From Candidatus Omnitrophota bacterium (GTDB lineage: Bacteria; Omnitrophota; Gorgyraeia; Gygaellales; Profunditerraquicolaceae), in assembly GCA_028710685.1 (NCBI GenBank), contig JAQTTQ010000001.1, positions 1,648-65,647 on the forward strand: a stretch of 64,000 nucleotides of DNA, written 5' to 3'. Position 1 is the first letter of the stretch. Every line of letters starts with the position of its first letter. The position numbers and the translations under genes are program-made. The notes below the pieces were generated by a model. That model saw only the letters and a list, made by a program, of their open reading frames with translations, was not told where the DNA came from and did not search any database. Below, piece by piece: positions 13,870 to 37,038 of the stretch.

Positions 13870-13870
13870 C

Positions 13871-13924: not shown

Positions 13925-13933
13925 GAGGGTAAG

Positions 13934-14552: not shown

Positions 14553-14569
14553 ACATTAAGGAGGGGTTT

Positions 14570-15874
14570 ATGGATATGAAGGTTGTTATTGATACAATTT
14601 GGGTCCTTATGACTGCAAAACTGGTATTCTTTATGAATCTGGGTTTTGCTATGGTTGAGTCAGGGTTTGCCCGTTCAAAGAACTGCGTAAATATCCTTTC
14701 TAAGAACTTCGTGGTTTTCGCCGTTTCATCTTTTGGTTTTCTGCTTTTAGGCTGGGGGCTTATGTTCGGAGACGGAAATGCTTTTATGGGGCTAAAGGGC
14801 CTCTTTTTTGCAAGCGGAATAGATAATTCTCCGGCAACCGCTGAGGCGTATAAGGGAGTTTATTCCGCTCTTTCCTGGACCGGAGTACCAATGTGGGCAA
14901 AATTCTTTTTTCAGCTGGTATTCTGCGGCACGGCAGCTACTATTGTATCCGGGGCTGTGGCAGAGCGGATTAAATATAATTCTTTTATAATTTTTTCTTT
15001 TCTTATGGCCATGTTTATTTATCCAATCGTCGGGCATTGGATATGGGGAGGTGGTTGGTTGCATAGTAAGGGGATGCTTGATTTCGCAGGTTCAACAGTA
15101 GTGCATTCAGTTGGAGGGTGGGCAGCTCTGGCAGGCATTTTGGTTTTAGGGCCGAGATTCGGTAAATATGCAAACGGCAGGTTAAATCCGATCCCCGGAC
15201 ATAACCTTTCGCTAGCCACATTAGGTACCTTTGTTCTCTGGTTTGGTTGGTTTGGTTTTAATCCCGGGTCAACAATGTCTGCCGATCCTATTGCAATAAG
15301 CCATGTCGCCATAACTACCAATATGGCGGCAGCTATGGCTATTATTAGCGCTACCTTGCTTTCCTGGATATTATTAGGAAAGCCTGATCTAGGGATGACT
15401 TTAAATGGCTGCTTGGCCGGGTTAGTGGCCATTACCGCCGCCTGTGCTTTTGTAAGTGTTGTAAGTGCTATTATAATCGGTTTAATTGCAGGCGCACTTG
15501 TGGTTTTATCGGTTATATTCTTTGATAAGATTAGAATCGATGATCCGGTAGGCGCCCTTTCAGTTCATCTTGTAAACGGAATCTTTGGTACTCTTTGTGT
15601 GGGACTTTTTGCGCAGGATAAGATTGCCGGTATAGATACGGGAAACGGGTTATTTTACGGGGGAGGGACTAAACTGTTAGCCTCTCAGCTAAGCGGTGTT
15701 TTAGGGGTTGCGCTATTTACTTTTTTTGTTTCACTTTTTTTCTGGGGCGTGCTTAAATATACCATGGGTATAAGGGTATCCCTTAAGGAAGAGGTAGAGG
15801 GTTTGGATATCGGAGAACACGGTAATTCTGCCTATCCTGAATTTTTTGGCAGGAAGCCGGCATATACAGTTTAA
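14570..15874 (+). CDS. amt: ammonium transporter (Amt family)
   Basis: About 11 TM helices and Amt/MEP-family sequence throughout (for example FGFNPGS, GHWIWGGGWL). The ATG at 14570 has an AAGGAGGGG RBS. The ORF-track start at 14498 is upstream of the leader terminator. Confidence 0.9.
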   Translation: MDMKVVIDTIWVLMTAKLVFFMNLGFAMVESGFARSKNCVNILSKNFVVFAVSSFGFLLLGWGLMFGDGNAFMGLKGLFFASGIDNSPATAEAYKGVYSALSWTGVPMWAKFFFQLVFCGTAATIVSGAVAERIKYNSFIIFSFLMAMFIYPIVGHWIWGGGWLHSKGMLDFAGSTVVHSVGGWAALAGILVLGPRFGKYANGRLNPIPGHNLSLATLGTFVLWFGWFGFNPGSTMSADPIAISHVAITTNMAAAMAIISATLLSWILLGKPDLGMTLNGCLAGLVAITAACAFVSVVSAIIIGLIAGALVVLSVIFFDKIRIDDPVGALSVHLVNGIFGTLCVGLFAQDKIAGIDTGNGLFYGGGTKLLASQLSGVLGVALFTFFVSLFFWGVLKYTMGIRVSLKEEVEGLDIGEHGNSAYPEFFGRKPAYTV

Positions 15875-15887
15875 GGAGGGTGAATAA

Positions 15888-16226
15888 ATGAAAAAAATAG
15901 AAGCCATTATAAGGCCAGAGAGTATTGATGCGGTGCGAAGCGCTTTAAGTGCGGCAGGGGTAACTGGCCTCATGATTTCGGATATTGAAGGGCATGGTAA
16001 ACAAAAAGGGGTTATCCAGCAGTGGAGGGGGGAGAAGTATAGGGTGGAGCTTCTTGCAAAAATAAAAATTGAGACCGTGGTTAAGGATGATGATGTGGAG
16101 CGTATAGCCGGCGTTATTATTGAAAGCGCCAGGACAGGCGAGATAGGAGACGGTAAGATATTTATATACCCGATTACGGAGGCGATAAGGATACGTACGG
16201 GAGAAAAGGGGGATTCGGTCATTTAG
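15888..16226 (+). CDS. glnK: nitrogen regulatory protein P-II (amt-linked)
   Basis: MKKIEAIIRPESIDAVRSALSAAGVTGLMISDIEGHGKQKG, 112 aa, immediately downstream of amt. Confidence 0.9.
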   Translation: MKKIEAIIRPESIDAVRSALSAAGVTGLMISDIEGHGKQKGVIQQWRGEKYRVELLAKIKIETVVKDDDVERIAGVIIESARTGEIGDGKIFIYPITEAIRIRTGEKGDSVI

Positions 16227-18648: not shown

Positions 18649-19026
18649 ATGATAACTATCCTAATATCTGAAGATGAAATAAGGGCCAAAGAGGCCCTCG
18701 CTAGGATGTTCGCCCAGGAGGGATATGAACTTTCAGAATCCTGCCTTACGGGCAATGTCATAAGGGTAGTGAAGAAGGGCTGCATCCGCGACCTTGCCTT
18801 TATAGGCGATAGTGCAATTGAGATACAGGATTCATTTCTTAGCGGCCGGGGGGCATTGTATAAATCGGTAGTTGAAGAAATAGAAAAGCCTTTAATCGAA
18901 CATACCCTTGAGAGTACCCAGGGCAATCAGATAAAGGCGGCAAAGGTTTTAGGGCTAAACCGTAATACCTTACGTACCAAGATAAGAAAGCTAGGAATTA
19001 ATGTTAGAAAATGGAAAATTATATGA
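18649..19026 (+). CDS. Fis-family DNA-binding protein
   Basis: The C-terminal segment LYKSVVEEIEKPLIEHTLESTQGNQIKAAKVLGLNRNTLRTKIRKLGI matches the Fis/NtrC C-terminal HTH. The N-terminus resembles a vestigial receiver start (ITILISEDEIRAKEALARM). Confidence 0.65.
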   Translation: MITILISEDEIRAKEALARMFAQEGYELSESCLTGNVIRVVKKGCIRDLAFIGDSAIEIQDSFLSGRGALYKSVVEEIEKPLIEHTLESTQGNQIKAAKVLGLNRNTLRTKIRKLGINVRKWKII

Positions 19027-22000
19027 AAAACGATAATGGTTTTCCTCTTGCCCAGGGATTATATGACCCTCGCCTCGAGCATGATTCCTGCGGCGTAGGT
19101 TTTGTTTGCGATATCCTTGGCAGGAAATCTAACGGTATCCTCAGGCAGGGAATCAGCGTATTAAACAGGCTTGCTCATCGCGGGGCGGTAGGGGCAGATC
19201 CTAAGACCGGGGATGGTGCAGGTATTTTAATCCAGATCCCTCATGAGTTTTTCGCTAAGGTTGCCCAAGATAAAGGTATTGCCTTGCCTGATCCGGGGTT
19301 TTATGCAAGCGGATTGGTATTCTTGCCTCAGAATAAGGAAGAGCGTCAATTCTGCAAAGATTATTTTGAAGAAGCCATAAATGAGCACGGGCAGTCTTTG
19401 CTTGGTTGGCGGGTTGTGCCTACCGATAGTTCTGATATCGGAGAGGGCGCAAAATCCACCCAGCCGGTTTTTGAACAGGTTTTTATCGCCAGGGGTAAGG
19501 AGATTAAAAGCCAATTAGATTTTGAAAGAAGGCTGTATATAATCCGCAGGAGAATAGAAAATATTGTCCGCTCCTCCAAATTAAAACAAAAGAGCTCATT
19601 TTATATCACCAATATCTCAAGCCGGACTTTTTCTTATAAGGGCCTGCTTATGCCGGGGCAGCTGGATAGTTTCTTTATTGATTTGAAGGACAATAGCTTA
19701 AAAAGTGCATTGTGCCTTGTGCATTCCAGGTATTCGACAAACACCTTTCCTACCTGGGATTTAGCGCAGCCATTTAGGTTTCTGGCGCATAACGGAGAAA
19801 TCAATACCATCCGCGGTAATATTAACGGGGTTAGCGCTAGGGAGCGCCTTTTAGCAAGCGAATTTTTCGGCCTGGATATAGAGAAGTTAAAGCCGATAAT
19901 TGTGGAGGGCGGCAGCGATTCCGCAGCGATAGATAATTTTTTTGAATTGCTCGTTTTATCCGGAAGGCCCATTGATCATGTAATGATGATGCTTATCCCC
20001 TCTGCCTGGGAACACGATAAACTCATGAAGAAAGAGTTAAGGGACTTTTATAAATACCACGCCTGTTTTATGGAGCCTTGGGATGGCCCGGCAGCGGTTG
20101 CTTTTACCGATGGGGATAATATAGCGGCAGCCTTGGATAGAAACGGCTTGAGGCCGGCACGTTATATTATTACAAACGATAATCTATGCGTAATGGCCTC
20201 TGAGGTCGGGGTCCTGGATATCGCGCCTAAGGATATCAAGGTTTCCGGCAGGCTTGAACCGGGGAAGATTTTCTTTATAGATACAAAAGCCGGGCGTGTA
20301 ATTAACGACGCAAAGATTAAAGAGGAAATATCTCAGCATAATCCTTATGGTTATTGGCTTTCAAAGAACCTGGTGGATTTAGATAAGTTATCCGGCTCAG
20401 GTTTGCCGCTGAAACACAAGTCCGAGGATTTAATCGCAGCCTTAAAAAGCTTTGGTTATTCGCGCGAAGACCTGAAATTAATTATCCGGCCTATGGCCGA
20501 GGAAGGCAAGGAGCCTGTGGGGTCTATGGGGAATGATACCCCTCATGCCTTCTTGTCCGATAAGCCTCAACTTTTGTATAATTATTTTAAACAGCTTTTT
20601 GCGCAGGTCACTAACCCGGCAATTGATTCCATAAGGGAAAAGCTGGTTATGAGCCTGGAAAGCTTTATCGGACCGGAGAAGAATTTGTTGGAAGAAACCC
20701 CAAAACACAGCCATAAATTAAGGGTTAATAACCCTATTCTTTCGGATGAGGAATTATCCAGGATCAGGGATATAGGCGTAAATAACTTTAAGACCAAGAC
20801 AATATATACTTTCTTTGATGCCGGGAATAAGGAAGATGGTTTCAGGATGGCCCTGGAAAGGATATGTTTTGAAGCAGAATACGCTATAGAGCAGGGGTAT
20901 TCCTTTATCATATTAAGCGACAGGGGGGCGGATAGGGATGGCATTGCCCTGCCGGCACTTTTAGCCACAAGTGCGATACATCACTATTTAGTCAAGAAAA
21001 CTATACGTTCGCAGGTTGCTTTAATAGTGGAGAGTGCGGAGCCCAGGGAGGTGCATCATTTTGCGCTTCTTTTTGGTTATGGCGCTGATTGTATCAATCC
21101 CTATCTTGCCTATAGGGCAGTTGAATATCTTATCGAACAAAAAGAATTAAAAACAGATATCAAGACTGCGCTTAAAAATTATAATAAGGCGGTAACCGAT
21201 GGGATACTAAAAATACTATCCAAAATGGGTATTTCTACCCTTAGAAGTTACCGCGGAGCACAAATTTTTGAGGCCTTAGGCTTAAGCCAGGATTTAGTTG
21301 ACCGGTATTTTACAGGTACTGTTTCAAGGATCGGCGGAGTCAATTTAAGCGGGATTGCCCTGGAAACTATTCTACGCCACAGGCAGGCTTATTCTGCGCG
21401 CAACCCCCAGAACGTTTGTTTACCAAGCGGAGGGGTATACCAATGGAAGGCAGACGGAGAATTTCATCTGTGGAATCCTATGAGTATTGCAGCCTTGCAG
21501 GCTGCTGCGAGGGAAAATAACCCGGTTAAATACGCTGAGTTTGCAAAACTGATTAATGATCAATCGGATAACCCGACTACCTTAAGAAGTTTATTCAGAT
21601 TTAAGGCGGCAGAAAAAGTTCCGCTTGATGAAGTGGAGCCGGTAAGCGCTATAATGAAACGTTTTGTAACCGGCGCAATGAGTTTTGGCTCCATAAGTGC
21701 TCCGGCCCATGAAACTATAGCTATCGCCATGAACAGGATCGGCGGAAAGTCTAATACCGGAGAGGGAGGAGAGGACCCCAATAGGTTTATAGCCTTGCCT
21801 AACGGTGACTCGCGAAGGTCGGCTATTAAGCAGGTGGCATCAGGAAGATTCGGGGTAACTATAAATTACCTTATTAATGCCGATGAGATACAGATTAAGA
21901 TTGCCCAGGGCGCTAAACCGGGAGAGGGAGGGCAGTTGCCCGGGCATAAGGTAAGCGGGGTAATCGCCAGGATACGTTATACTACTGCCGGGGTAACCTT

Positions 22001-23561
22001 AATATCCCCTCCTCCTCATCATGACATCTATTCGATTGAAGACTTAGCGCAGCTTATTTTTGACTTAAAGAATGCAAATCCTAAGGCGCGCATCAGCGTA
22101 AAGCTTGTCTCGGAAATGGGTGTGGGTACTGTGGCTGCTGGTGTGGCCAAGGGGCATGCAGATATGATTTTAATCTCCGCAGGAGACGGTGGCACAGGGG
22201 CCTCGCCTTTAAGTTCTATTAAATATGCGGGCCTTCCCTGGGAGCTGGGTTTATCCGAGACGCATCAGACATTGCTTCTGAATAATCTGCGCTCAAGGGT
22301 TCGTATACAGGCTGATGGCCAGATGCGTACCGGGCGGGATGTGGTTATCGCGACTTTATTGGGAGCGGAGGAATTCGGTTTTTGTTCTGCCGTATTGGTA
22401 GTAGTCGGGTGTGTAATGCTTAGGCATTGCCACTTGAATAATTGTTCCCTGGGGGTGGCTACGCAGGATGATATTCTGCAAAAAAGATTTAAGGGCAGGC
22501 CGGAGTATATAGTTAATTATTTCAATTTTGTTGCCCAGGAGATAAGAGAGATTATGAGCAGCCTTGGGATAAGGAATATGGATGAAATGGTCGGACGCTC
22601 CGATCTTCTTGAAGTAGACAAAGATAGAGTCCCCTTAAAGGCTAAAAATTTGGATTATTCCCGTATACTCTACCGTCCTTTGCTAGCTGACGGGACAGCA
22701 AGGCATTTTCAGCCTAAAAAGAATAACAGCTTAGGGCCGGTGTTAGATAACAAGCTGATTAAAGAATGTTCTGTTTCTATTAGAGAGAACAAGCCGATAG
22801 TAGTAACTAGCGGGATAAATAATGCAGATCGTTCTGTAGGCGCGATGTTAAGCGGGGAAGTATGCCGCGTCTGCGGGGATGGGGTACTTCTTGAGGATAC
22901 TCTAAGATGCCGATTTCGCGGGATAGCCGGACAGAGTTTCGGGGCTTTCTTGGCTAAGGGGATAACATTTGAGCTCGAGGGGATGAGTAACGATTATGTA
23001 GGTAAGAGTATATCCGGAGGAAAAATAATAATCTATCCTGATCGCAGCTCTTCTTTTAATCCCCATGAGAATATTATTATTGGTAATACCAGTTTCTACG
23101 GGGCAATATCAGGGGAGGCTTATATAAGCGGTTTGGCAGGGGAGCGGTTCTGCATCAGGAATTCCGGCTTATATGCGGTTGTGGAAGGAGTGGGAGATCA
23201 TGGCTGTGAATATATGACCGGGGGAAGGGTTATAATACTGGGAAGAACCGGAAGAAACTTTGCCGCAGGTATGTCCGGGGGCATAGCCTATGTTTACGAT
23301 CAGGATGGCAGCTTTAAAGATAGATGCAATATGGATATGGTGGCGCTGGATAGGATAAAGGGCGATGATTTAGATACCATATATCATCTTTTGCATAATC
23401 ATTTAAAATATGCCAAAAGCAAGAAGGCAAAGTCGATACTTGAGAATATCCACGATGAGCTTAAGTATTTTATCAAGGTAATACCTATAGAATACAAAAG
23501 AATACTTGAGGGTATTAAGATTGAGCAAAAGCTCGATTTAATGGAGAGATCTGATGGGTGA
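19011..23561 (+). CDS. gltB: glutamate synthase large subunit
   Basis: 1516 aa with the Ntn amidotransferase start (...CGVGF), FMN/Fe-S central domains and the C-terminal GXXDGG repeat domain. An alternative ATG at 19023 overlaps the fis stop. Confidence 0.9.
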   Translation: MENYMKNDNGFPLAQGLYDPRLEHDSCGVGFVCDILGRKSNGILRQGISVLNRLAHRGAVGADPKTGDGAGILIQIPHEFFAKVAQDKGIALPDPGFYASGLVFLPQNKEERQFCKDYFEEAINEHGQSLLGWRVVPTDSSDIGEGAKSTQPVFEQVFIARGKEIKSQLDFERRLYIIRRRIENIVRSSKLKQKSSFYITNISSRTFSYKGLLMPGQLDSFFIDLKDNSLKSALCLVHSRYSTNTFPTWDLAQPFRFLAHNGEINTIRGNINGVSARERLLASEFFGLDIEKLKPIIVEGGSDSAAIDNFFELLVLSGRPIDHVMMMLIPSAWEHDKLMKKELRDFYKYHACFMEPWDGPAAVAFTDGDNIAAALDRNGLRPARYIITNDNLCVMASEVGVLDIAPKDIKVSGRLEPGKIFFIDTKAGRVINDAKIKEEISQHNPYGYWLSKNLVDLDKLSGSGLPLKHKSEDLIAALKSFGYSREDLKLIIRPMAEEGKEPVGSMGNDTPHAFLSDKPQLLYNYFKQLFAQVTNPAIDSIREKLVMSLESFIGPEKNLLEETPKHSHKLRVNNPILSDEELSRIRDIGVNNFKTKTIYTFFDAGNKEDGFRMALERICFEAEYAIEQGYSFIILSDRGADRDGIALPALLATSAIHHYLVKKTIRSQVALIVESAEPREVHHFALLFGYGADCINPYLAYRAVEYLIEQKELKTDIKTALKNYNKAVTDGILKILSKMGISTLRSYRGAQIFEALGLSQDLVDRYFTGTVSRIGGVNLSGIALETILRHRQAYSARNPQNVCLPSGGVYQWKADGEFHLWNPMSIAALQAAARENNPVKYAEFAKLINDQSDNPTTLRSLFRFKAAEKVPLDEVEPVSAIMKRFVTGAMSFGSISAPAHETIAIAMNRIGGKSNTGEGGEDPNRFIALPNGDSRRSAIKQVASGRFGVTINYLINADEIQIKIAQGAKPGEGGQLPGHKVSGVIARIRYTTAGVTLISPPPHHDIYSIEDLAQLIFDLKNANPKARISVKLVSEMGVGTVAAGVAKGHADMILISAGDGGTGASPLSSIKYAGLPWELGLSETHQTLLLNNLRSRVRIQADGQMRTGRDVVIATLLGAEEFGFCSAVLVVVGCVMLRHCHLNNCSLGVATQDDILQKRFKGRPEYIVNYFNFVAQEIREIMSSLGIRNMDEMVGRSDLLEVDKDRVPLKAKNLDYSRILYRPLLADGTARHFQPKKNNSLGPVLDNKLIKECSVSIRENKPIVVTSGINNADRSVGAMLSGEVCRVCGDGVLLEDTLRCRFRGIAGQSFGAFLAKGITFELEGMSNDYVGKSISGGKIIIYPDRSSSFNPHENIIIGNTSFYGAISGEAYISGLAGERFCIRNSGLYAVVEGVGDHGCEYMTGGRVIILGRTGRNFAAGMSGGIAYVYDQDGSFKDRCNMDMVALDRIKGDDLDTIYHLLHNHLKYAKSKKAKSILENIHDELKYFIKVIPIEYKRILEGIKIEQKLDLMERSDG

Positions 23562-24999
23562 TTTAAGGGGGTTCTTAAAATTAGCCAGGCAGGATAATTC
23601 TTATAGGGATGTCTGCCAGAGGGTAGAGGATTACAGGGATGTGGTTAAGCCCCGTAAGGATATCAAGGCAAAAGAGCAGGCTTCGCGCTGCATGGATTGC
23701 GGGACTCCCTTTTGCCATTTTAAATGTCCGCTGGGTAATTACATACCCGAGTGGAATGATTTTATGTTTCGGGGGAATTGGGAAGAGGCAGTGAAGTTAC
23801 TGGAGGCAGCCAACAGCCTTGCGGAGATTACCGGGCGGGTTTGCCCGGCTTTATGCGAATACGCCTGTGTTTTAGGCCTTAACGATGATCCGGTAACTAT
23901 CCGTGATAACGAGTTATCTGTAGTGGAATACGGTTTTAATAATGGTTTGATTAAGCCGGTCAAAATCAGCCAAAGAACCGGGAAAAAGGTTGCGGTGGTT
24001 GGTTCCGGACCGGCAGGACTATCATGCGCATCCCTTCTTAATAAGGCAGGGCATACGGTCACTGTTTTTGAGCGCGATAGTGAACTTGGGGGGATTCTCC
24101 GTTTTGGCATTCCGGATTTTAAACTTGAGAAAGGTATTTTGGACAGGCGTATCGGCTTATGGAATAAAGAGGGGGTTATTTTCAAGGTTAATACAGATGT
24201 GGGCAGCGATTATCCGGTGGCTAAATTAATTGAAGGTTTTGACGCGATTTGCCTGGCAGGGGGATCGCGAATCCCCCGGGATTTAAATATTGAAGGCCGC
24301 AATTTAAAAGGAATATATTTTGCGATGGATTACCTTAAGCAGTCTAACCTTCGCGTATCCGGCAAGAAAATCCCGGCAGAAGAGTTAATCGATGCCAGGG
24401 GAAAGAGTGTTGTGGTTATAGGCGGGGGAGATACCGGATCGGATTGCGTAGGTATTGCGCATCGCCAGAAAGCCGGCTGTGTTGTGCAGATTGAAGTTTT
24501 ACCCCGGCCTCCCGAATGCCGCACAGAAGACCAGCCTTGGCCTAATTATCCGCTTCTTTTAAGAAACTCTAGCAGCCATGAAGAAGGCGGAGAGCGCTAT
24601 TGGTCGGTATTGACAAAGAAATTTGTAGGCGAAAAAGGCAGGGTAAATAAATTATCTTGCGTTAAAGTTGAGTTGATCCCTCAACCGGGTAATCCCTGCC
24701 TAATAAGTAAAGAAATACCCGGGAGTGAATTCTATATCAAGGCGGATTTAGTAATAATTGCGGCAGGGTTTCTGCATCCGCAGCATACGGGGTTGCTTAA
24801 AGAATTAAATATAGGCTTTGATCAGAAGGGTAATGTTTTTACTCAAGACAATTATGCTACCTCAGTAGATAAGATATTTTGTGCAGGCGATATGCGCCGC
24901 GGGCAATCTTTGGTTGTCTGGGCTATTTCAGAAGGTAGGCGCTGTGCCTATGCGATAGATAAGTTTCTTATGGGAGAGAGCAGTTTGGCTCAAATTTAA
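23554..24999 (+). CDS. gltD: glutamate synthase small subunit (NADPH)
   Basis: N-terminal Cys clusters (CMDCGTPFCHFKCP), the FAD/NAD Rossmann segment VAVVGSGPAGLSCAS, and an 8-nt overlap with gltB. Confidence 0.9.
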   Translation: MGDLRGFLKLARQDNSYRDVCQRVEDYRDVVKPRKDIKAKEQASRCMDCGTPFCHFKCPLGNYIPEWNDFMFRGNWEEAVKLLEAANSLAEITGRVCPALCEYACVLGLNDDPVTIRDNELSVVEYGFNNGLIKPVKISQRTGKKVAVVGSGPAGLSCASLLNKAGHTVTVFERDSELGGILRFGIPDFKLEKGILDRRIGLWNKEGVIFKVNTDVGSDYPVAKLIEGFDAICLAGGSRIPRDLNIEGRNLKGIYFAMDYLKQSNLRVSGKKIPAEELIDARGKSVVVIGGGDTGSDCVGIAHRQKAGCVVQIEVLPRPPECRTEDQPWPNYPLLLRNSSSHEEGGERYWSVLTKKFVGEKGRVNKLSCVKVELIPQPGNPCLISKEIPGSEFYIKADLVIIAAGFLHPQHTGLLKELNIGFDQKGNVFTQDNYATSVDKIFCAGDMRRGQSLVVWAISEGRRCAYAIDKFLMGESSLAQI

Positions 25000-25014
25000 A
25001 GAGGAGCGTTTAAT

Positions 25015-27594
25015 ATGATTAGCACCGGTATAAAAGGGTTAGATAGCGTGATTACGGGGTTAAGGCTAGGAGATAATGTAGTTTGGCAGATCGATCATAT
25101 CGATGACTATCTAGATTTGGTAAGGCCATTTGTCAGGCAGTCATTAAAAGAAGGAAGAAAAGTGGTTTATATCAGGTTTGCCGCGCACCAAGAGCTCCTT
25201 AAGCCATCCGCTAAGGTAAGGCGTTATGATTTAGACGCTAGTGCCGGATTTGAATCTTTTACTGCCAGGGTGAATAATATTATTACCGCGGAAGGGGAAG
25301 GGGCTTATTATGTGTTTGACTGTTTGTCTGAGCTGCTTTTGGCTTGGGCCACCGATCTTATGATGGGTGATTTCTTTATGCTGACTTGCCCGTATCTCTA
25401 CGAGCTTAAGACAGTAACCTACTTTTCTATTTTACGTAACAACCATTCCTTTAAGTCTATAGCGCGCATACGCGAGACGACACAATTATTGCTTGATGTG
25501 TACCGTTGCCAAGAGAGTTTTTATATCCATCCCTTAAAGGTATGGAACCGCTATTCTCCTACTATGTTTTTACCGCATTTAAGAAAGGGGGATGAGTGTA
25601 TTCCGATTACGGATAGCGTAAACGCGGCAAGGCTTTTTTCCTATATCAGGGAAAAGGGGGCAGAGAATGCCAAACGCAACCTTGATTATTGGGACCGTTT
25701 ATTTCTGGAGGCCGGCGATCTGGCAGGGAAAAACCTTCCTAAGGAGAAGGTTAAGGAAACCTTGGCAAAGTTATGCAGTATAATGATCTCTAAAAATAAG
25801 AAAATATTGGATTTGGCGATGCGAACTTTCTCGCTGGAGGAACTTATAGAAATAAAGTCACGCTTAATCGGGACCGGTTTTATCGGGGGTAAAACCGTGG
25901 GTATGCTCATCGCCAGGAAGATACTTTCGCAGAAGCTTTTAAACTGGAAAGAATTATCTGAGCCCCATGACTCTTTTTATATCGGTTCGGATATATTTTA
26001 TTCTTATATAGTCCATAACCGCTGGTGGAAACTGCATATGCAGCAGAAGACTGAAGAAGGTTATTTTAATGCGGCAAGGTTATTGAAAGAAAGGATGCTT
26101 TACGGGATATTCCCCGAAGAGATTATGGAGCATTTTCAGCAGATCATTGAATATTTCGGGTCATCGCCTATTATAATACGCTCCAGCTCACTGCTGGAGG
26201 ATGATTTTGGCAATGCCTTTGCCGGTAAATATGAGAGTATATTTCTGGCTAACCAAGGCAGTCCCGAGCAGAGGTATATACAATTTGCGGAGGCAGTTAG
26301 GAAAATTTATGCCAGCACAATGAATGAGGATGCTTTAGTTTATAGGAAGCAGAGGGGGTTGGATAAGCTGGATGAGCAGATGGCCCTTTTGGTGCAGCGT
26401 GTTTCAGGCGCTCATCATAAAGATTTTTTCTTTCCGGATTTAGCCGGGGTAGGCGTTTCATATAATACATATGTTTGGAATAACGAAATCAATCCTAAGA
26501 CAGGCATGCTGAGGGTTGTTTTCGGGTTGGGTACCAGGGCGGTTAATCGGGTGGAAGGGGATTATCCTAGGATGGTAGCTTTGTCCGATCCCCTGCGCAG
26601 GCCTTATGCGCAAAATGAGGATTTAAGAAAATATTCCCAGCATGACGTAGATGTTATAGATACAAAAGAAAACTCCCTGGCTACAATATCCTTTAATGAG
26701 CTGGCCTTAAAGAATATCTATAAAAATGTCGAAGCCTTTGCGGTTAAGGATTATGATTCGATGGATTTCATGAGTAAAAGAGGCCAGGATGGGCAATATT
26801 GGATTCTGACACTCGATAATATATTTAATGATAATAAATTGCCGGATTTTTTTAGGAAAATACTCGGGGAATTAGAGTTAAACTATGATTATCCGGTTGA
26901 AATAGAATTTACGGTTAATTTCACGGGGGATAACAAGTTTAAGATCAATCTCCTGCAGTGCCGTCCGTTACAAACATACGGCCTGGAGCGTAAGGTTAAG
27001 ATACCTAAGGCAATAAGTAAGGAGGATACCCTATTTGATTCCAGGGGTTATTTTTTAGGAGGGAATATTAACCAGAAGATAAGCTGGATTATCTATATTG
27101 ACCCTGAAAGGTACAGTAAGCTTATCCTTTCCGATAAATATGAGGTAGCCCGGATAGTAGGCAAATTAAATATATCTATTAAAAGCAGGGATGAGCTGCC
27201 TACCCTTTTAATGGGACCGGGCAGATGGGGTACAACTACGCCTTCACTGGGAGTACCGGTTAAGTTCGCCGAGATAAATAATGTAGCGGCCCTTGCTGAG
27301 ATTGCTTTTTCATCCGGAAATTTAATGCCGGAGTTATCATTCGGTACCCATTTTTTTCAGGATTTGGTAGAAACAAATATATTTTACGCAGCCCTATTCC
27401 CCGGCAGGAAGGAAGTCATTTTCAATAAAAAATGGTTTGATAAGAACAGGAATCTGTTTACTGATCTTATCCCCGAGTCGGCAAAATACGAAGATGTAAT
27501 CGGGGTATATGATGTAAGCGAAAAAAACTTTAAGATTATTTCGGAGGTAGTTTCGCAGAGAGTTGTTTGTTTTGCTCAAGGGTTTACTAATTGA
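25015..27594 (+). CDS. PEP/pyruvate-binding (PPDK_N ATP-grasp-like) domain protein with an N-terminal degenerate KaiC/RecA-like domain
   Basis: The N-terminus GIKGLDSVITGLRLGDNVVWQ resembles the KaiC/RadA start but has no Walker A motif. A central segment GTGFIGGKTVGMLIARKIL resembles the PEP-synthase/PPDK nucleotide-binding domain. No His swivel motif was seen. The RBS is AAAGAGGAG. Confidence 0.5.
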   Translation: MISTGIKGLDSVITGLRLGDNVVWQIDHIDDYLDLVRPFVRQSLKEGRKVVYIRFAAHQELLKPSAKVRRYDLDASAGFESFTARVNNIITAEGEGAYYVFDCLSELLLAWATDLMMGDFFMLTCPYLYELKTVTYFSILRNNHSFKSIARIRETTQLLLDVYRCQESFYIHPLKVWNRYSPTMFLPHLRKGDECIPITDSVNAARLFSYIREKGAENAKRNLDYWDRLFLEAGDLAGKNLPKEKVKETLAKLCSIMISKNKKILDLAMRTFSLEELIEIKSRLIGTGFIGGKTVGMLIARKILSQKLLNWKELSEPHDSFYIGSDIFYSYIVHNRWWKLHMQQKTEEGYFNAARLLKERMLYGIFPEEIMEHFQQIIEYFGSSPIIIRSSSLLEDDFGNAFAGKYESIFLANQGSPEQRYIQFAEAVRKIYASTMNEDALVYRKQRGLDKLDEQMALLVQRVSGAHHKDFFFPDLAGVGVSYNTYVWNNEINPKTGMLRVVFGLGTRAVNRVEGDYPRMVALSDPLRRPYAQNEDLRKYSQHDVDVIDTKENSLATISFNELALKNIYKNVEAFAVKDYDSMDFMSKRGQDGQYWILTLDNIFNDNKLPDFFRKILGELELNYDYPVEIEFTVNFTGDNKFKINLLQCRPLQTYGLERKVKIPKAISKEDTLFDSRGYFLGGNINQKISWIIYIDPERYSKLILSDKYEVARIVGKLNISIKSRDELPTLLMGPGRWGTTTPSLGVPVKFAEINNVAALAEIAFSSGNLMPELSFGTHFFQDLVETNIFYAALFPGRKEVIFNKKWFDKNRNLFTDLIPESAKYEDVIGVYDVSEKNFKIISEVVSQRVVCFAQGFTN

Positions 27595-27650
27595 CAGTTT
27601 CTTAAACTATGCTATACTTACAAATAGTTCAAGGGAGAACTCAAGAGTTT

Positions 27651-27701
27651 AAACAATGGCGTTTAAGGGCCGTTCCATCGGCATTAAACGCCTTTTTGTT
27701 T
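27651..27701 (+). promoter_or_regulatory. pyrG leader: hexaloop hairpin overlapping an intrinsic terminator (candidate attenuator)
   Basis: AAAC-AAUGGC-GUUU (27651-27664). A 9-bp terminator stem GGCGTTTAA (27658-27666) / TTAAACGCC (27685-27693) with a structured loop, followed by TTTTTGTTT. The two structures are mutually exclusive. Confidence 0.5.
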
Positions 27702-29331: not shown

Positions 29332-30416
29332 TGGAGGCGATGCTTGTATTGGAAGACGGGAGTATATTTAGGGGAAGGTCTTTTGGCTCAAGCGGAGAAA
29401 GATACGGCGAGGTTGTATTTAATACTGCGATGAGCGGTTACCAGGAAATAATTACCGACCCTTCCTATAAGGGCCAGATTGTCGTAATGACCTACCCGTT
29501 GATAGGCAATTACGGAGTCAGTAGGGAAGATGTAGAATCGCGTAAGCCATTTCTAGAAGCATTTGTGGTAAGGGAGTGCAGCAGGATAGCCAGTAACTGG
29601 CGTTCGATGGATAACTTGCAGGGATATCTGAAAGCGAATAATATTATGGGCCTTGAGGGTATCGATACCAGGGCGCTTACTTTACTCATACGCAAGTCCG
29701 GTTCGATGAAGGCAGTTTTATCTACCTTAGACCTCGATGCTACAAGTTTAATTAATAAGGTAAGGTTATCGCCTTCTCTTCTGGGGGTGGATTTAGTTAA
29801 AGAAGTGACTATAGGCAAGCAATACGTCTGGTCGCATATTAAGAGCAAGAAATATAAGGTAGTAGTTATTGATTGCGGCTTAAAATACAATATTCTGCGT
29901 AAACTGATGGGTGTAGGATGCGAGGCCTTGGTAATGCCCGCAAACGTAAGTGCCCAAGAGATACTTAAAAGAAGGCCGCAGGGCGTGCTTATCTCCAACG
30001 GTCCGGGAGACCCCGCTGCAGTAAATTATGTAGTTAATACCACCGAGAAACTGCTTGGCAGAATTCCTATTTTCGGTATATGTTTAGGGCATCAGATACT
30101 CGCCCTTGCCTTAGGGGGTAAGACCTACAAGTTAAAATTCGGGCACCATGGCGCCAACCATCCGGTAAAAGAATTAAAAACCGGCAAGATAATGATAACC
30201 TCTCAAAATCATAATTTCTGCGTAGATATCGAGTCATTAAATAAAAAAGAGATAGAGATGACCCATATTAATCTAAACGATTCTACTCTTGAGGGTATGA
30301 GGCATAAAAGGTTTCCGGTATTATCGGTGCAATTCCATCCTGAGGCTTCCCCTGGGCCTCACGACGCAGATTATTTATTTCTAGAGTTTACCAAAATGAT
30401 GAGAAAATATGCCTAA
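29331..30416 (+). CDS. carA: carbamoyl-phosphate synthase small (glutaminase) subunit
   Basis: N-terminus [11 protein letters not shown], the GATase catalytic segment GICLGHQ and a 361-aa length. Confidence 0.9.
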
Positions 30417-32055
30417 GCGCAAAGATATAAAGAAAATACTTATTATAGGCTCCGGGCCTATTGTTATAGGACAGGCATGCGAATTTGATTACTCCGGGAC
30501 TCAGGCCTGCAAGGCCTTAAGAAGAGAAGGTTTCAGGGTGGTCTTGGTAAATTCCAATCCCGCAACAATTATGACTGATCCCCAGACAGCAGATATTACT
30601 TATATTGAGCCCATAACTGCGGATATACTTGAAAAGATAATTGCTAAAGAGCGTCCCGATGCGCTTCTTCCCACCTTGGGGGGGCAGACAGCTTTGAATG
30701 CCGCAGTAGAATTGGCAGAGCGGGGGGTATTAAAAAAGTATAATGTTGAGACTATCGGCGCCAATATAAAGGCTATAAAAAAGGGCGAGGATAGGCAGTT
30801 GTTTAAAGAGGCGATGAAGAAGATCGGGATTGACCTCCCTAAGAGCGGTAAGGCCTATACCCTGAAAGAGGCTATTGATGTAGCCTTGAAGATAGGCTTT
30901 CCTTTAATTATAAGGCCTAGTTTTACCTTAGGGGGAAGAGGCGGAAGTATGGCCTATAATATGGAAGAATTCAAAGAATTAGCCAAATATGGATTAGAGT
31001 CAAGCATGATCAGTGAAATACTTATTGAAGAATCAGTAGCGGGTTGGAAGGAATTTGAGCTGGAGGTCATGCGGGACAAGAAGGATAATGTCGTGGTTAT
31101 TTGTTCCATAGAAAATCTTGATCCTATGGGGGTGCATACGGGAGATAGTATAACCGTGGCCCCTGCGCAGACTCTTACCGATAAAGAATACCAGAAGATG
31201 CGCGACAGTGCACTTGCCTGCATCAGGGAGATAGGCGTTGAGACCGGAGGTTCGAATATCCAGTTTGCCGTTAATCCTAAGACAGGGAGATTGGTGGTGA
31301 TAGAGATGAATCCGAGGGTATCAAGGTCATCGGCCTTGGCTTCAAAGGCAACGGGGTTTCCTATCGCCAAGATTGCGGCAAAATTGGCCGTAGGTTATAC
31401 GTTAGATGAGATACCTAACGATATAACCTTAAAGACTCCTTCTTGTTTTGAGCCGGTTATTGATTATTGCGTGGTGAAGATTCCCCGTTTTACTTTCGAG
31501 AAATTTCCTTCTGCCCAAAAAGAGCTGACTGTATCTATGAAATCGGTGGGAGAGGTGATGGCTATAGGAAGGACTTTTAAGGAGGCCCTGCAAAAAGCGC
31601 TGCGTTCTCTGGAATTAGGTTTTTCTGGGTTAGACGATTTAAAATATCAACCTAGCGACGATGAGTTAAGAAACAACCTGAGGATGCCTAATGATTTAAG
31701 GATCTTTTATATAAAGGAGGCATTAAAAAGGGGGTATAGCCCGGCAGAGATTAATAACCTGACCCAGATAGACCTGTGGTTTCTGGAGAACATTAAAGAG
31801 ATCGTGGGCTTAGAAGAAGAGATTAGGCTAAAAATGAAGATAGGCGATGAAATAGATTCGGTTGAGTTGTTAAGGAAGGCGAAGGAATTCGGTTTTTCTG
31901 ATTTACAGATTTCCAGGCTTTTGGGAAAAGATGCTAATAGTATAAGGAAGTGGAGGATGGAGAAGGGCATAAAACCGGAATATAAGCTGGTGGATACTTG
32001 TGCCGCTGAGTTTGAGGCATTCACGCCTTATTATTATTCAGCTTATGAGGGATAA
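30409..32055 (+). CDS. carB: carbamoyl-phosphate synthase large subunit, N-terminal half only (split carB)
   Basis: [26 protein letters not shown] start and one ATP-grasp unit plus the oligomerisation region. The protein ends at 548 aa and the next gene is purF, so the second half must be encoded elsewhere. Confidence 0.85.
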
Positions 32056-32057
32056 TT

Positions 32058-33434
32058 ATGTGCGGAATATTCGGGGTTTATCCCCACAGAGACGCTAGTA
32101 AACTTACCTATTTAGGGCTTTATAGCCTGCAGCACCGCGGTGAGGAGTCAGCGGGTATAGTAAGCAATAATGGCAGGAAGGTTTTTCTGCATAAGGGGAT
32201 GGGCCTGGTAAGCGATGTCTTTGATGAAAGGTCTATTTCTGGACTGCGCGGGGAACTTGCCATAGGCCATGTGCGTTATTCTACAACCGGAAGCAGCAAT
32301 ATAAAGAATATCCAGCCATTTTTAGTGAAGTCAAAAATGGGGAATATTGCTATAGCCCATAACGGTAATCTTATAAACGCCCTTTTCTTACGCCGGCAGA
32401 TGGAGGAGAAGGGCTCTATATTCCAGACCACCATGGATTCAGAGGTGATATCCCACCTTCTTGCTCATAGCCCGAAGAAAGATGTTAAGGAGGCGATGGT
32501 CTGGGCGTTAAGCCAGCTTAAGGGAGCGTATTCTTTAATCTTGATGGTCAATGATATGATCGTAGGGGCAAGGGACACCTTTGGCTGGAGGCCGCTTTGT
32601 TTGGGCAAATTCGACGGAGCTTATATCTTGGCTAGCGAAACCTGTTCTTTGGATTTGATAGGCGCCGAATACATAAGGGATATTGAGCCCGGAGAGATAG
32701 TATTTATTAGCAAGGATAGGTTTGAGTCAATAAAGCCGTTTGAGAGAACGCCTTGCGCTTTTTGTATATTTGAATTTATCTATTTTGCCCGGCCGGATAG
32801 TAATATTTTCGGATGTAATGTATATGGCTGCCGTAAGGCTTTAGGGAGGCAGCTGGGGAAAGAATTCCCGGTACCGGCAGATATCGTAATGCCTATACCT
32901 GATTCCGGGACCTCCGCGGCCCTGGGTTTTACTGAAGCAACTAATATTCCTTATGAAACAGGATTGATCCGTAACCATTATATCGGGCGCACCTTTATTC
33001 AACCAAGCCAGTTAGTCCGTGATTTCCGGGTTAAGATAAAGTTAAATCCGGTTAGGGAAGTTTTAAGGGATAAGCGCGTAATTGTTATTGAGGATTCTAT
33101 CGTGCGCGGGACAACCAGCCGAGCCAGGGTTAAGGCAATCAGGGAGGCGGGGGCAAAAGAGATACATATGCGGGTTAGTTGCCCTCCTTTGAGGTTCCCC
33201 TGTTTTTACGGCATAGACTTTCCTACAAAAAAAGAATTAATCGCCTCTAACCACAGCATCCAATGGATACGCGATTTTATCGGGGTTGATAGCCTTGAAT
33301 ACTTAAGTCTTAAGGGTATGCTGGATTCGATCCCCTGCAAAAAAGATAATTTCTGCACTGCCTGTTTTACCGGGGAATATCCGGTTAAACCTTCCTTTGG
33401 TCTTTCAAAGAAGTCCCTGGAGAGGCGTAAGTGA
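32058..33434 (+). CDS. purF: amidophosphoribosyltransferase
   Basis: MCGIFGV N-terminal nucleophile, a PRTase fold and a C-terminal Cys cluster. Confidence 0.9.
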   Translation: MCGIFGVYPHRDASKLTYLGLYSLQHRGEESAGIVSNNGRKVFLHKGMGLVSDVFDERSISGLRGELAIGHVRYSTTGSSNIKNIQPFLVKSKMGNIAIAHNGNLINALFLRRQMEEKGSIFQTTMDSEVISHLLAHSPKKDVKEAMVWALSQLKGAYSLILMVNDMIVGARDTFGWRPLCLGKFDGAYILASETCSLDLIGAEYIRDIEPGEIVFISKDRFESIKPFERTPCAFCIFEFIYFARPDSNIFGCNVYGCRKALGRQLGKEFPVPADIVMPIPDSGTSAALGFTEATNIPYETGLIRNHYIGRTFIQPSQLVRDFRVKIKLNPVREVLRDKRVIVIEDSIVRGTTSRARVKAIREAGAKEIHMRVSCPPLRFPCFYGIDFPTKKELIASNHSIQWIRDFIGVDSLEYLSLKGMLDSIPCKKDNFCTACFTGEYPVKPSFGLSKKSLERRK

Positions 33435-34774: not shown

Positions 34775-35599
34775 ATGAAAATACTAAGCAAGGAAGTGTT
34801 AAGCGATTTTCAGGGGGTAAGGGTTATCAGCATGGAGATTTTTGCCCCGAAAATTGCCTTAAAGGCTAAGCCCGGGCAGTTTATCGCGCTTATGGTAAAT
34901 AAGGACGGTGAGAGGGTGCCTTTAACCATAGTAAGCACGGGAAATGACTCTATAAGAATTATCTTTCAGGAAGCAGGTTTTACTACCAGGCTCTTGGGAA
35001 GGCTTAATCTCCAGGATACCCTTTATGCTATAGTCGGGCCTCTTGGCCATGCAACCGATATCAAGCGTTTCGGCAAAGTAATTCTGGTCGGAGGAGGGGT
35101 AGGCATTGCCGAGATTTATCCGGTAGCAAAGGCCTTAAAAGAAGCGGGAAATAATGTTACCGGTATTCTTGGTGCAAGGACCAGGGATCTGCTTATCCTT
35201 GAGAATGAATTAAGGGAGGCCTCGAGCCAGTTGTTTGTGGCAACGGATGACGGGTCTTACCAGAGAAAGGGCTTTGTTACCGATATATTAAAAGAATTAC
35301 TAGAAAAAGATAAATATGATTTGGTTTATTCGGTAGGCCCGATTCCGATGATGAAGAGGGTTGCGCAGGTCACTAAGGGTTTTAAGGTTAAGACTATTGT
35401 TTCCCTGAATGCGTTAATGGTGGATGCAACCGGTATGTGCGGATGCTGCCGGGTTACGGTCTCAGGGCAAACAAAATTCAGCTGTATCGACGGCCCGGAG
35501 TTTGAGGCGCAGGAGATAGACTGGGAGGAGCTAACCCAGAGAAACCGGGTCTATCAGGATAAAGAAAAGCATATCTGTAATCTTAATAAGTTATTCTAA
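34775..35599 (+). CDS. nfnA: NfnA/SudB-type small subunit (PyrK-like FAD/[2Fe-2S] ferredoxin-NADP+ reductase subunit)
   Basis: PyrK-like fold with a C-terminal Cys cluster CGCCRVTVSGQTKFSC, 274 aa, paired with a GltD-like subunit. Confidence 0.75.
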   Translation: MKILSKEVLSDFQGVRVISMEIFAPKIALKAKPGQFIALMVNKDGERVPLTIVSTGNDSIRIIFQEAGFTTRLLGRLNLQDTLYAIVGPLGHATDIKRFGKVILVGGGVGIAEIYPVAKALKEAGNNVTGILGARTRDLLILENELREASSQLFVATDDGSYQRKGFVTDILKELLEKDKYDLVYSVGPIPMMKRVAQVTKGFKVKTIVSLNALMVDATGMCGCCRVTVSGQTKFSCIDGPEFEAQEIDWEELTQRNRVYQDKEKHICNLNKLF

Positions 35600-35607
35600 G
35601 GTAAACT

Positions 35608-37038
35608 ATGCCAAAACCGGCGGTTAAAACAAAAGAAGTCCCTGCTTGTGAGAGAATCTTAGGTTTCTCAGAGGTCACCTGCGGGTATACGCAGGAAGAA
35701 GCCATTTTAGAAGCATCACGCTGCCTGCAGTGCAAAGACCCCAAGTGTATACCCGGTTGCCCGGTAGGGATAAATATCAAGCAGTTTATAAAACAGGTTA
35801 CGCAAAAAGATTTTGCCGGGGCCTATTATACTATCAGGGAAAAGAATAATTTTCCATGCATCTGCGGGAGAGTTTGCCCTGCGGAATACCAGTGCAGAAA
35901 GGCCTGTGTTTTAACAAAAAAAGATTCGCCATTTGCCAGCGCGGATTCCATAAATATACATTTTATTGAGAGGTTTGTCGGCGATTTCGGGATGAAAAAC
36001 GGTTTAAAGGTAAATATTATCCCCGATGAAAAAATCTCCGGGCATAAAGTTGCGGTTGTAGGCTCCGGGCCTGCCGGATTATGCTGCGCAGGAGAGTTAG
36101 CGCGTTTGGGGGTTAAGGTTACGGTCTTTGAGGCGTTGCATAAAAACGGAGGGGTATTAAGATATGGTATCCCGCCCTTTAGGATGCCGCGCGATATACT
36201 TGACTTCGAGATAAATTACCTGAAAAGCTTAGGCGTTGAGATCCTGCCGAATTTTATTGTAGGCAAGACTAACGATTTAGCGGATTTGTTTAAAGAAGGT
36301 TTTTCTGCGGTTTTTTTAGGTTTGGGTGCAGGGGTTCCTTCCTTTCTCGGTATTGCGGGAGAGAACCTTTGTAATGTTTATTCGGCAAATGAATTCCTGA
36401 CCAGGGTTAACCTTATGTCCGCATATGAGTTTCCTAAAGCCCATACTCCCGTTAATATAGGCAAGCATATCTTAGTGGTAGGCGGGGGGAATACGGCAAT
36501 GGATGCCGCGCGTTGTGCTTTAAGGCTGCAAAAGATGAATAATATTGAGCCTGATACTACTATTGTTTATAGGAGGACAGAGGTAGAGATGCCTGCCCGC
36601 AGGCTTGAGATAGAGCATGCCAAGGAAGAAGGCGTTAAGTTTAAGATGCTGGTCAGCCCGCAAGAGTTTAAGGGTGATGATTCCGGTTTTGTAAAGGTCT
36701 TAAAATCTTTGGAGTGTAAATTAGGGCAGCCGGATGCCTCTGGCAGAAGGAGGCCGGTTGCTATCGAGGGAAGCGATTTTGAAATTGAATGCGATCTGGC
36801 TATTATCGCCATAGGGCTTAAGGCGAATCAGGTTTTAACCAGCGTAACCCCGGAAATCAAAACAGATAAATATTCGGATGTAATAGTTAATCCTCAAACT
36901 ATGGAGACTTCTATGAGAGGGGTATTTGCCGGAGGCGACATAGTCGGAGGGGAAGGGACAGTGATTGAGGCAATGGGCATGGCTAAGAAGGCAGCCCTTG
37001 CAATTAAGGATTATTTGTATCAGTTACCTATTAAATAA
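35608..37038 (+). CDS. nfnB: NfnB/SudA-type large subunit (GltD-like NADPH oxidoreductase with two [4Fe-4S] clusters)
   Basis: CLQCKDPKCIPGCP and CICGRVCPAEYQCRKAC clusters. The FAD/NAD segment VAVVGSGPAGLCCAGEL. Length is 476 aa. Confidence 0.8.
   Translation: MPKPAVKTKEVPACERILGFSEVTCGYTQEEAILEASRCLQCKDPKCIPGCPVGINIKQFIKQVTQKDFAGAYYTIREKNNFPCICGRVCPAEYQCRKACVLTKKDSPFASADSINIHFIERFVGDFGMKNGLKVNIIPDEKISGHKVAVVGSGPAGLCCAGELARLGVKVTVFEALHKNGGVLRYGIPPFRMPRDILDFEINYLKSLGVEILPNFIVGKTNDLADLFKEGFSAVFLGLGAGVPSFLGIAGENLCNVYSANEFLTRVNLMSAYEFPKAHTPVNIGKHILVVGGGNTAMDAARCALRLQKMNNIEPDTTIVYRRTEVEMPARRLEIEHAKEEGVKFKMLVSPQEFKGDDSGFVKVLKSLECKLGQPDASGRRRPVAIEGSDFEIECDLAIIAIGLKANQVLTSVTPEIKTDKYSDVIVNPQTMETSMRGVFAGGDIVGGEGTVIEAMGMAKKAALAIKDYLYQLPIK

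Follow-up and report, generated by a model that had tools for sequence, protein, structure and literature searches.

A KaiC-fold, ATP-grasp and orphan-domain protein family linked genomically to glutamate dehydrogenase and glutamate synthase probably regulates nitrogen assimilation

In a 64,000-nucleotide stretch of DNA from Candidatus Omnitrophota bacterium (assembly GCA_028710685.1, contig JAQTTQ010000001.1; the whole stretch is called the window below), we analysed an open reading frame (ORF) at 25015–27594 on the + strand, which has an ATG start and encodes 859 amino acids plus a stop codon. Its product matches, with 100% identity, the database entry ‘PEP/pyruvate-binding domain-containing protein [Candidatus Omnitrophica bacterium]’. 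We found that this protein represents a large family that carries a PPDK_N-type ATP-grasp domain followed by an orphan C-terminal domain (C-domain), and that the genomic partner of the family as a whole is glutamate dehydrogenase (GDH); its adjacency to the glutamate synthase (GOGAT) genes gltBD is the Omnitrophota/Elusimicrobia variant of a wider link to ammonium assimilation. The family is probably an unrecognised nitrogen-assimilation regulator. Our preferred reading, to which we assign a probability of about 0.4, is that the protein would be a signal-controlled, ATP-driven enzyme that modifies GDH or GOGAT through a phospho-intermediate on histidine 779 (H779).

The link to ammonium assimilation emerged from gene neighbourhoods. 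We clustered the ORFs of 80 species-representative loci with a full-length homologue, and a full-length copy was called in 79 of them. The sequence-only reading of this DNA had placed the gene beside gltBD in the window; surveyed across genomes, the family is present in several phyla, and a core ammonium-assimilation gene lies within 8 kb of the homologue in 50 of the 79 loci and is immediately adjacent in 42. These loci span Omnitrophota, Planctomycetota, Syntrophia/Desulfobacterota, Bacillota, Actinomycetota, Acidobacteriota and others. The commonest neighbour was gdhA, confirmed by Pfam, which was found in 27 loci and immediately adjacent in 17, in upstream, downstream and convergent orientations. 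Other neighbours were gltB (15 loci), gltD (13), amtB/PII (11), glnA (7) and NrpR (7; identified by PF01995, E = 1e-84). By our estimate, the chance of finding a single-copy gene inside a 16-kb interval of a 3–5 Mb genome is well below 1%. A GDH gene also lay beside all five of the sampled family members with distant architectures. Gene orders seen, with X denoting the homologue, include GDH, a PPDK_N protein and X fused to a nucleotidyltransferase (NTase), in that order, and NrpR-GDH-GDH-X. In one locus (L087), a gene for the AMPylase SelO (1347–2831, − strand) lies two genes from a pair formed by GDH and an NTase-bearing X; this is a single case and possibly a coincidence.

The Bacteroidales loci gave the closest view of this partnership. 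In Parabacteroides and Phocaeicola, the homologue and one gdhA are transcribed divergently, and approximately 3.5–4 kb past the other end of the homologue there is a second gdhA. Between the two gdhA copies no non-GDH gene other than the homologue is conserved, and the genes downstream of either copy are not conserved. AmgK/MurU-like and EEP genes, which lie between the homologue and the second gdhA in Parabacteroides, were considered as GDH-related candidates and set aside because they are absent from Phocaeicola. A 1996 report by Baggio and Morrison, cited in PMC4539542, is said to describe one or more trans-acting genes needed for the activity of Bacteroides thetaiotaomicron GdhA. Reportedly, GdhA activity in E. 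coli required a gdhA-adjacent fragment of about 3 kb. The homologue studied here could be such a trans-acting gene, a possibility that we treat as a lead and not as evidence. The Bacteroidales homologue is 2.95 kb long and next to gdhA, but in the two genomes inspected the two genes are divergently oriented and the homologue does not lie downstream, and a second homologue search returned near-identical P. distasonis sequences only. Three of the loci examined, from Parabacteroides, Prevotella (1.77 Mb) and Phocaeicola (L091, L092 and L093; NZ_OY725790.1, NC_022111.1 and OY726056.1), are ‘plasmid’ records in PLSDB that carry housekeeping genes (gdhA, ruvC); despite the plasmid label they resemble parts of a chromosome or secondary chromosomes.

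To describe the protein itself, we used an AlphaFold2 model of its full length made from 43 diverse full-length homologues (pLDDT 89.6, pTM 0.88). Its central part, residues 286–669 (25870–27021, + strand), is a PPDK_N-type ATP-grasp domain according to PF01326, Foldseek and motif conservation, in agreement with the sequence-only reading, which had likened it to the nucleotide-binding domain of phosphoenolpyruvate (PEP) synthase (PEPS) and rifampin phosphotransferase (RPH). PF01326 was the sole significant Pfam domain in the protein (residues 290–669, E = 3.4e-46, 158 bits against a cut-off of 27). The top Foldseek match of the model in the PDB was RPH (5hv3/5hv1; E about 1e-12, 411 aligned columns, in the ATP-grasp domain), and the fourth was HpeI (9goj; E = 7e-10), again in the ATP-grasp region. 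The domain has the motifs G-x-G-x-x-GGK293, R389-SSS-x-x-E395-D396, FAGK405, E631 and Q648-C-R650-P, and its alignment to PEP synthase 8a8e spans the VRSS..ED..FAGQ and IEW...QSRP motifs. Residues K293, R389, S391, E395, D396, E631, Q648 and R650 were kept in 110–120 of 120 copies from separate 50%-identity clusters. In PEPS and PPDK the residues of these motifs bind nucleotide and metal, and their conservation equals that of the C-domain residues described below. Judged from these invariant ATP-site residues, the site appears to be intact and able to bind ATP, and the domain is predicted to be catalytically competent.

Outside this domain the protein departs from the enzymes that share it. 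NCBIfam equivalogs for PEP synthase, pyruvate phosphate dikinase (PPDK), RPH and PigC/RedH matched part of the ATP-grasp region alone. The best PEP-synthase match, NF004881, scored 55.3 bits against a cut-off of 883, TIGR01418 scored 36 against 740, TIGR01828 scored 10 against 843 and the RPH model NF041857 scored 26 against 999. Because these scores are far under the cut-offs, the protein is not PEPS, PPDK, RPH or PigC/RedH, and the domain searches did not return a standard PEPS or phosphotransferase with all its catalytic domains. Full-text searches of the literature found nothing on the family architecture or on a link between PPDK_N and GDH. The sequence-only reading had not been able to assign the architecture to a characterised enzyme, and these results agree with it. 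Compared with PEPS and PPDK (PF01326+PF00391+PF02896), the protein has a homologous ATP-grasp domain and keeps the GGK, RSS..ED, FAG, E-x-E and Q-x-R-P motifs, but it lacks the swivel phospho-His domain (GG-x-T-S/C-H) and the PEP/pyruvate TIM-barrel domain; it has instead a KaiC-like N-terminal domain (N-domain) and the orphan C-domain, and its context is nitrogen assimilation and not gluconeogenesis. RPH, the best structural match, has a similar length (both about 860 amino acids) and also places a further C-terminal domain after the ATP-grasp domain, but only the ATP-grasp domain aligns, and the studied protein has neither the rifampin-binding domain nor the PF00391 His domain. The two-component aryl kinases (PpsAB; AcvAB/HpeHI) show that a PPDK_N module can work without a PF00391 domain in cis. 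In these systems the His-domain subunit is encoded next door, whereas a swivel-motif (PF00391-type) scan of all ORFs of 83 loci and of the window found no such protein.

The most sharply conserved part of the family is the C-domain, an orphan alpha/beta domain of about 190 residues (672–859; 27028–27591, + strand), for which a model of the domain alone reached a pLDDT of 93.6. Its motifs are P735-G-R737-W-G739-T, G746, E762 and S775-x-G777-x-H779-F-F-Q-D-L-V-E. Among 113 divergent copies from distinct 50%-identity clusters, covering all architectures, R737, G746, E762, G777 and H779 were invariant and S775 was kept in 112. H779 (nucleotides 27349–27351) is placed by the models at the N terminus of a helix, in S-x-G-T/S-H-F-F-Q-D-L-V-E, and is the sole invariant histidine outside the ATP-grasp domain. 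The C-domain had no match in Pfam at E ≤ 10 with the query and 38 family members and none in PDB sequences by profile search, and a Foldseek search of its model against the PDB returned nothing better than E = 0.12. Neither PF00391 nor PF02896 was found at E ≤ 10 in the query and the same 38 members, and the protein ends 190 residues past the ATP-grasp domain with no PEP/pyruvate TIM barrel (PF02896). The sequence-only reading had remarked that no phospho-His swivel motif follows the ATP-grasp domain, which is true as a statement of homology, by Pfam, PDB and Foldseek searches alike. It overlooked, however, the C-domain with its invariant histidine, and the lack of a swivel motif is not the lack of a candidate phospho-acceptor.

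Two possible identities of the C-domain were considered and dropped. One was a divergent PF00391 swivel domain, an idea prompted by the resemblance of S-x-G-T-H-F-F-Q-D-L-V-E to GG-x-T-S-H-A-A-I-x-A-R-E, with the histidine at a helix N terminus and a strand following; it was unsupported by the Pfam search at E ≤ 10 (38 members), by the PDB profile search and by Foldseek. The other was a degenerate NTase, prompted by the topology of the domain and its G-R-x-G loop. HHalign against the genuine NTase extensions of relatives gave a probability of 0.2%, so this identity was rejected at the sequence level, and no acidic pair was found after G-R-W-G in the C-domain.

The N-domain, residues 1–215 (25015–25659, + strand), is predicted to be a KaiC/RecA-fold pseudo-ATPase on the basis of Foldseek, profile and conservation analyses. 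In the AlphaFold2 model it matched KaiC (many entries), FlaH, RecA and PH0284 in the PDB at E values from 1e-9 to 1e-7 (RecA 1xp8 at 7e-8), with target-normalised TM scores of 0.70 for FlaH 4yds and 0.63 for PH0284 2dr3. At the level of sequence the similarity is marginal: KaiC_arch_3 matched at E = 0.006 and 16 bits against a cut-off of 249, and a family profile of the N-domain matched KaiC 8zn5 at E = 0.011 over residues 5–165. In that alignment the KaiC P-loop GATGTGKT lies opposite ‘iedle.dY’, and reading residues 1–285 revealed no Walker A motif (G-x4-GK[ST]). Both parts of the earlier proposal, a KaiC/RecA-like N terminus and the loss of its P-loop, therefore stood, and the KaiC similarity, given its strength in the fold comparison, was not spurious. 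The N-domain keeps D102 in a Walker-B-like ‘FDCLS’, and its near-invariant residues are G5, D10, G19, D20, Y52, G78-F79-E80, D102, D114 and R179. No Pfam gathering threshold was reached by the N-domain. Weak matches of family members were to PAXNEB/Elp4, Iki1/Elp5, KaiC, AAA_25 and MEDS; PF06745 (KaiC) was matched, below threshold, by just 2 of 25 members (best E = 0.22), and MEDS (PF14417) by 1 of 25, over only profile positions 5–49 of 161, with 15.1 bits for the whole protein and 18.5 bits for residues 1–282 against a cut-off of 29.8; a remote kinship to MEDS is conceivable. Both Elp4 and Elp5 belong to the RecA-like pseudo-ATPases. The N-domain thus resembles KaiC, FlaH and RadA in fold and Elp4–6 in having lost its ATPase motifs, and differs from KaiC/RecA ATPases in lacking Walker A and the catalytic glutamate and in being fused to an ATP-grasp enzyme. 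It is joined to the ATP-grasp domain by a helical linker (‘L’, residues 216–285; 25660–25869, + strand) with helices at 218–282 in the model. The linker is conserved (W226, R283) and is also kept by relatives without the N-domain, the ‘L’ module being detected in L-G-C and double-length architectures, where G stands for the ATP-grasp domain and C for the C-domain.

An exhaustive HMMER search of 1.84 billion cluster representatives (50% identity) found 3,753 clusters at E ≤ 1e-3, of which 847 reached E ≤ 1e-30; at 90% identity the family has at least 8,000 clusters, and identity across Omnitrophota is approximately 75%. We determined architectures by a module-wise HMM scan of 269 proteins. The arrangement seen in the window (N-L-G-C, that is, KaiC-like N-domain, linker, ATP-grasp domain and C-domain) was found in 157. 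In 35 representatives, G-C or L-G-C stands behind a non-homologous N-terminal extension, which is either a helical module of about 130–200 amino acids (‘N2’) or a longer one of about 340 amino acids. Seven representatives carry an additional C-terminal Pol-beta NTase (GS...SDIDLL), and 11 are L-G-C-N-L-G-C fusions of about 1,480 amino acids, such as that of Geobacter sp. OR-1. In a Bacteroidales branch, a response-regulator receiver precedes the core formed by the ATP-grasp domain and the C-domain: P. distasonis WP_041525632 (984 amino acids) matched PF00072 at E = 2.8e-7, the ATP-grasp domain at E = 1.5e-45 and the C-domain at E = 4e-29, with all invariant residues present. The module of about 340 amino acids (the P0226 N terminus) had no match in Pfam and was judged GAF-like by eye alone. 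From an invariant core behind exchangeable input-type modules, we infer the design of a signal-controlled output enzyme. The ATP-grasp module itself is of a known kind; undescribed in the literature that we searched are its combination with a KaiC-fold pseudo-ATPase, the histidine-bearing orphan C-domain, the input–output modularity and the link to GDH and GOGAT.

Several further observations concern these architectures. The ‘ELNCLY...’ stretch in the N termini of P0226 and P0254 resembles, by eye alone, the N terminus of a histidine kinase encoded at 14450–16009 of locus L015, and this sensor kinase adjoins NrpR-gdhA-X in Syntrophorhabdus loci. In four Planctomycetota loci (L012, L024, L025 and L038), a paralogue of about 520 amino acids that clusters with the family lies directly upstream of the full-length gene, and additional short family members are encoded elsewhere in L016, L030, L039 and L041. 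This pairing of a short and a full-length protein mirrors the Geobacter-type double proteins and suggests that the core acts as a hetero- or homodimer. In Geobacter sp. OR-1 (L001, 6500–16052), the double-length homologue lies between a 1,149-amino-acid alpha-amylase-family gene and pgi, a carbohydrate context not seen for other members of the family; the contexts of two further double-length forms are unrelated to it.

In the window, translation of the studied gene is coupled to that of gltD. The stop codon of gltD ends at 24999 and the ATG lies at 25015, confirming the earlier statement that 15 nucleotides separate the two genes, and directly after the stop codon is a Shine–Dalgarno-like AGAGGAG (25000–25006, + strand) 8 nucleotides before the ATG. 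The genes upstream (18649–24999, + strand) form one apparent transcription unit with the studied gene. They encode, by Pfam, a small HTH_8 (Fis-type) protein of 125 amino acids with a C-terminal HTH_8 domain (18649–19026), gltB (19011–23561) and gltD (23554–24999), and the ends of these genes overlap. No terminator-like site was found between gltD and the studied gene. Of the sigma-70-like sites in the 18.5 kb scanned, the best one is at 27591–27618 (+ strand), overlapping the stop codon of the studied gene; it consists of TTGACA, a 16-nucleotide spacer and TATACT, with 11 of 12 matches plus the TG of an extended −10 element. It is followed by a stable, terminator-like leader hairpin (27658–27692, + strand; minimum free energy z = −3.1) and then a T-run ahead of pyrG (27721), and the downstream boundary as a whole spans 27591–27701. 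Thus pyrG is probably driven by its own promoter and leader, and the HTH_8-gltB-gltD unit therefore probably ends with the studied gene and does not extend to pyrG. As the last cistron of that unit, the studied gene would be expressed together with glutamate synthase, a co-expression already proposed from the sequence, to which the short gap, the ribosome-binding site and the position of the strong promoter-like site after the stop codon all add. The order HTH_8-gltB-gltD-X recurs in other Omnitrophota/Elusimicrobia loci (L002 and L003), and gltB-gltD-X is found in L004–L009.

Together, these features can be arranged into a possible mechanism. ATP would be bound by the ATP-grasp domain, as its invariant ATP-site residues predict. 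By analogy with related enzymes, this domain would then phosphorylate or pyrophosphorylate H779 of the C-domain. To our knowledge, every characterised PPDK_N enzyme (PEPS, PPDK, RPH, glucan-water dikinase (GWD), PigC and phenylphosphate synthase) moves phosphate via a phospho-histidine, and we therefore take H779 to be the likely acceptor. The phosphoryl group might next be passed to a target whose activity it would switch. The gene neighbourhood together with the input-type N termini leads us to take GDH, and here also GOGAT, as the likely target of such a covalent switch. The KaiC-like N-domain may gate the reaction through ligand sensing or oligomerisation, a role that is suggested because a receiver and other modules replace this domain in relatives. 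Covalent control of GDH has a precedent in mammalian Glud1, which is inactivated by SelO through AMPylation (PMC12375108). SelO, the glutamine synthetase (GS) adenylyltransferase GlnE and the PII uridylyltransferase GlnD, all of them covalent modifiers of core nitrogen-assimilation proteins, are functional analogies only; some relatives of the studied protein carry a Pol-beta-type NTase similar to that of GlnE and GlnD, but the studied protein has no NTase and shares no homologous domain with these enzymes, and the chemistry proposed for it is phosphoryl and not nucleotidyl transfer. A bolder version, which we regard as doubtful, is that the ATP-grasp and C-domain core represents a new class of protein-modifying enzyme, in which a non-canonical phospho-His domain switches GDH or GOGAT on and off and adds a GlnE-like layer of control from Omnitrophota to the Bacteroidales of the human gut.

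Several points weigh against our proposal. The target and chemistry proposed rest on gene neighbourhood and analogy. No nitrogen-assimilation gene lies within 8 kb in 29 of the 79 loci, such neighbours are lacking in all three of the contexts sampled for double-length forms, and the Prevotella homologue has no GDH gene within 8 kb. The C-domain has no kinship to the phospho-His swivel that is detectable by Pfam, PDB sequence or Foldseek searches, and for this reason the role of H779 as phospho-acceptor is a conjecture. Furthermore, the invariant Arg, Glu, Ser and His of the C-domain would equally well fit a second active site or a small-molecule binding site.

This last point bears on the alternative to which we give the largest share after our own proposal, although we think it unlikely. 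The protein could be a small-molecule kinase or dikinase, phosphorylating a metabolite of the 2-oxoglutarate/glutamate/glutamine node or making a phosphorylated effector, with the C-domain serving for substrate binding or transfer. RPH, PigC, phenylphosphate synthase and glucan-water dikinase would be its analogues, and as far as we know the characterised PPDK_N enzymes other than PEPS and PPDK all phosphorylate small molecules or glucans. The nearest structures are RPH and HpeI, the invariant R737, E762, S775 and H779 resemble a substrate or active site, and the neighbourhood is metabolic. However, we know of no missing ATP-dependent step in the chemistry of GDH, GOGAT or GS. Regulatory enzymes more typically have exchangeable N termini such as the receiver, and an added NTase, than pathway enzymes do, and in the clustered loci no transporter or further pathway genes co-vary with the homologue. 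The same swapping of input domains (KaiC-like, receiver and others) is a hallmark of second-messenger enzymes, and the NTase fused to some members would also suit an enzyme that synthesises or degrades a nucleotide or phosphate compound used in signalling to report nitrogen or energy status, with GDH and GOGAT co-regulated and not targeted. We consider this improbable: no messenger-making PPDK_N enzyme is known to us, and the adjacency is tight and specific to GDH and does not extend to general regulators.

It is also conceivable that no phosphoryl group is transferred at all and that the protein acts without catalysis, as a sensor or scaffold that binds ATP or AMP and attaches to GDH or GOGAT; a hexameric KaiC-like ring would then dock on hexameric GDH and control it allosterically. 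The N-domain does have the fold of the ring-forming KaiC, FlaH and Elp4–6 and has lost its ATPase motifs. Against this, the catalytic and metal residues of the ATP-grasp domain and the second invariant polar cluster are kept at approximately 100% in divergent members, which is atypical of pseudo-enzymes, and many relatives without the KaiC-like domain retain the linkage to GDH; we therefore see little likelihood in it. An ordinary PEP synthase, PPDK or RPH, as database names of homologues such as ‘phosphoenolpyruvate synthase’ and the presence of PF01326 would imply, is effectively refuted by the absence of PF00391 and PF02896, by equivalog scores of 10–55 bits against cut-offs of 456–1700 and by an alignment to RPH and PEPS that is confined to the ATP-grasp part.

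The studied gene is part of a larger nitrogen-assimilation supercluster in the window, in which amtB, GS type III, gltBD, the studied gene, pyrG, carA, carB, an NfnAB-like pair and GDH all lie on the same strand (+). At its head, 13031–15874 holds an antiterminator-type GAF-ANTAR regulator (from 13031) and an unannotated 173-amino-acid ORF upstream of amtB (from 14498), and GS type III follows from 16278. The HTH_8 ORF overlaps the start of gltB by 16 nucleotides, and loci L002 and L003 have an HTH_8 gene of 74–84 amino acids at the equivalent place; this protein may serve specifically to regulate the GOGAT operon. Downstream of the studied gene, the hairpin ahead of pyrG (from 27721) is a plausible attenuator, a label that stays a prediction because the leader matched no family in Rfam, and it may be a candidate for an undescribed CTP-responsive attenuator. 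Further along are carA (from 29331), a half-size carB (from 30409) and a class-II amidotransferase (from 32058). The carB product has only 548 amino acids, a single pre-ATP-grasp/ATP-grasp/oligomerisation unit, compared with the usual length of about 1,080 in L002 and L003, and directly 3′ of it is the 458-amino-acid class-II glutamine amidotransferase (GATase_6/7; the two genes occupy 30409–33434, + strand). The NfnAB-like pair (34775–37038), with DHODB_Fe-S_bind/NAD_binding_1 and then Fer4_20/Pyr_redox_2 domains, lies immediately upstream of the GDH gene (37063–38400; Pfam ELFV_dehydrog, E = 3e-93). This pairing is also present in L085 and probably in L009, which suggests that the NfnAB-like pair is a dedicated NADPH supply for GDH. 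The GDH gene is 9.5 kb downstream of the studied gene, and by tblastn its product is 73% identical to the GDH cluster found beside homologues.

Nitrogen enters biomass through GDH, GOGAT and GS. Of these, GS is under covalent control by GlnE, GlnD and PII, and we know of no general enzyme-level regulator of bacterial GDH. The family described here is tied genomically to GDH and GOGAT in at least seven phyla, which include the abundant and genetically tractable Bacteroidales of the gut. At minimum, these results mean that thousands of annotations as ‘phosphoenolpyruvate synthase’ are wrong and distort reconstructions of gluconeogenesis in metagenome-assembled genomes. If the family does control GDH or GOGAT, it would fill a gap in models of nitrogen regulation in anaerobes and candidate phyla, and the PPDK-type ATP-grasp enzymes would gain a new partner domain that might be a phospho-His module of a new kind.

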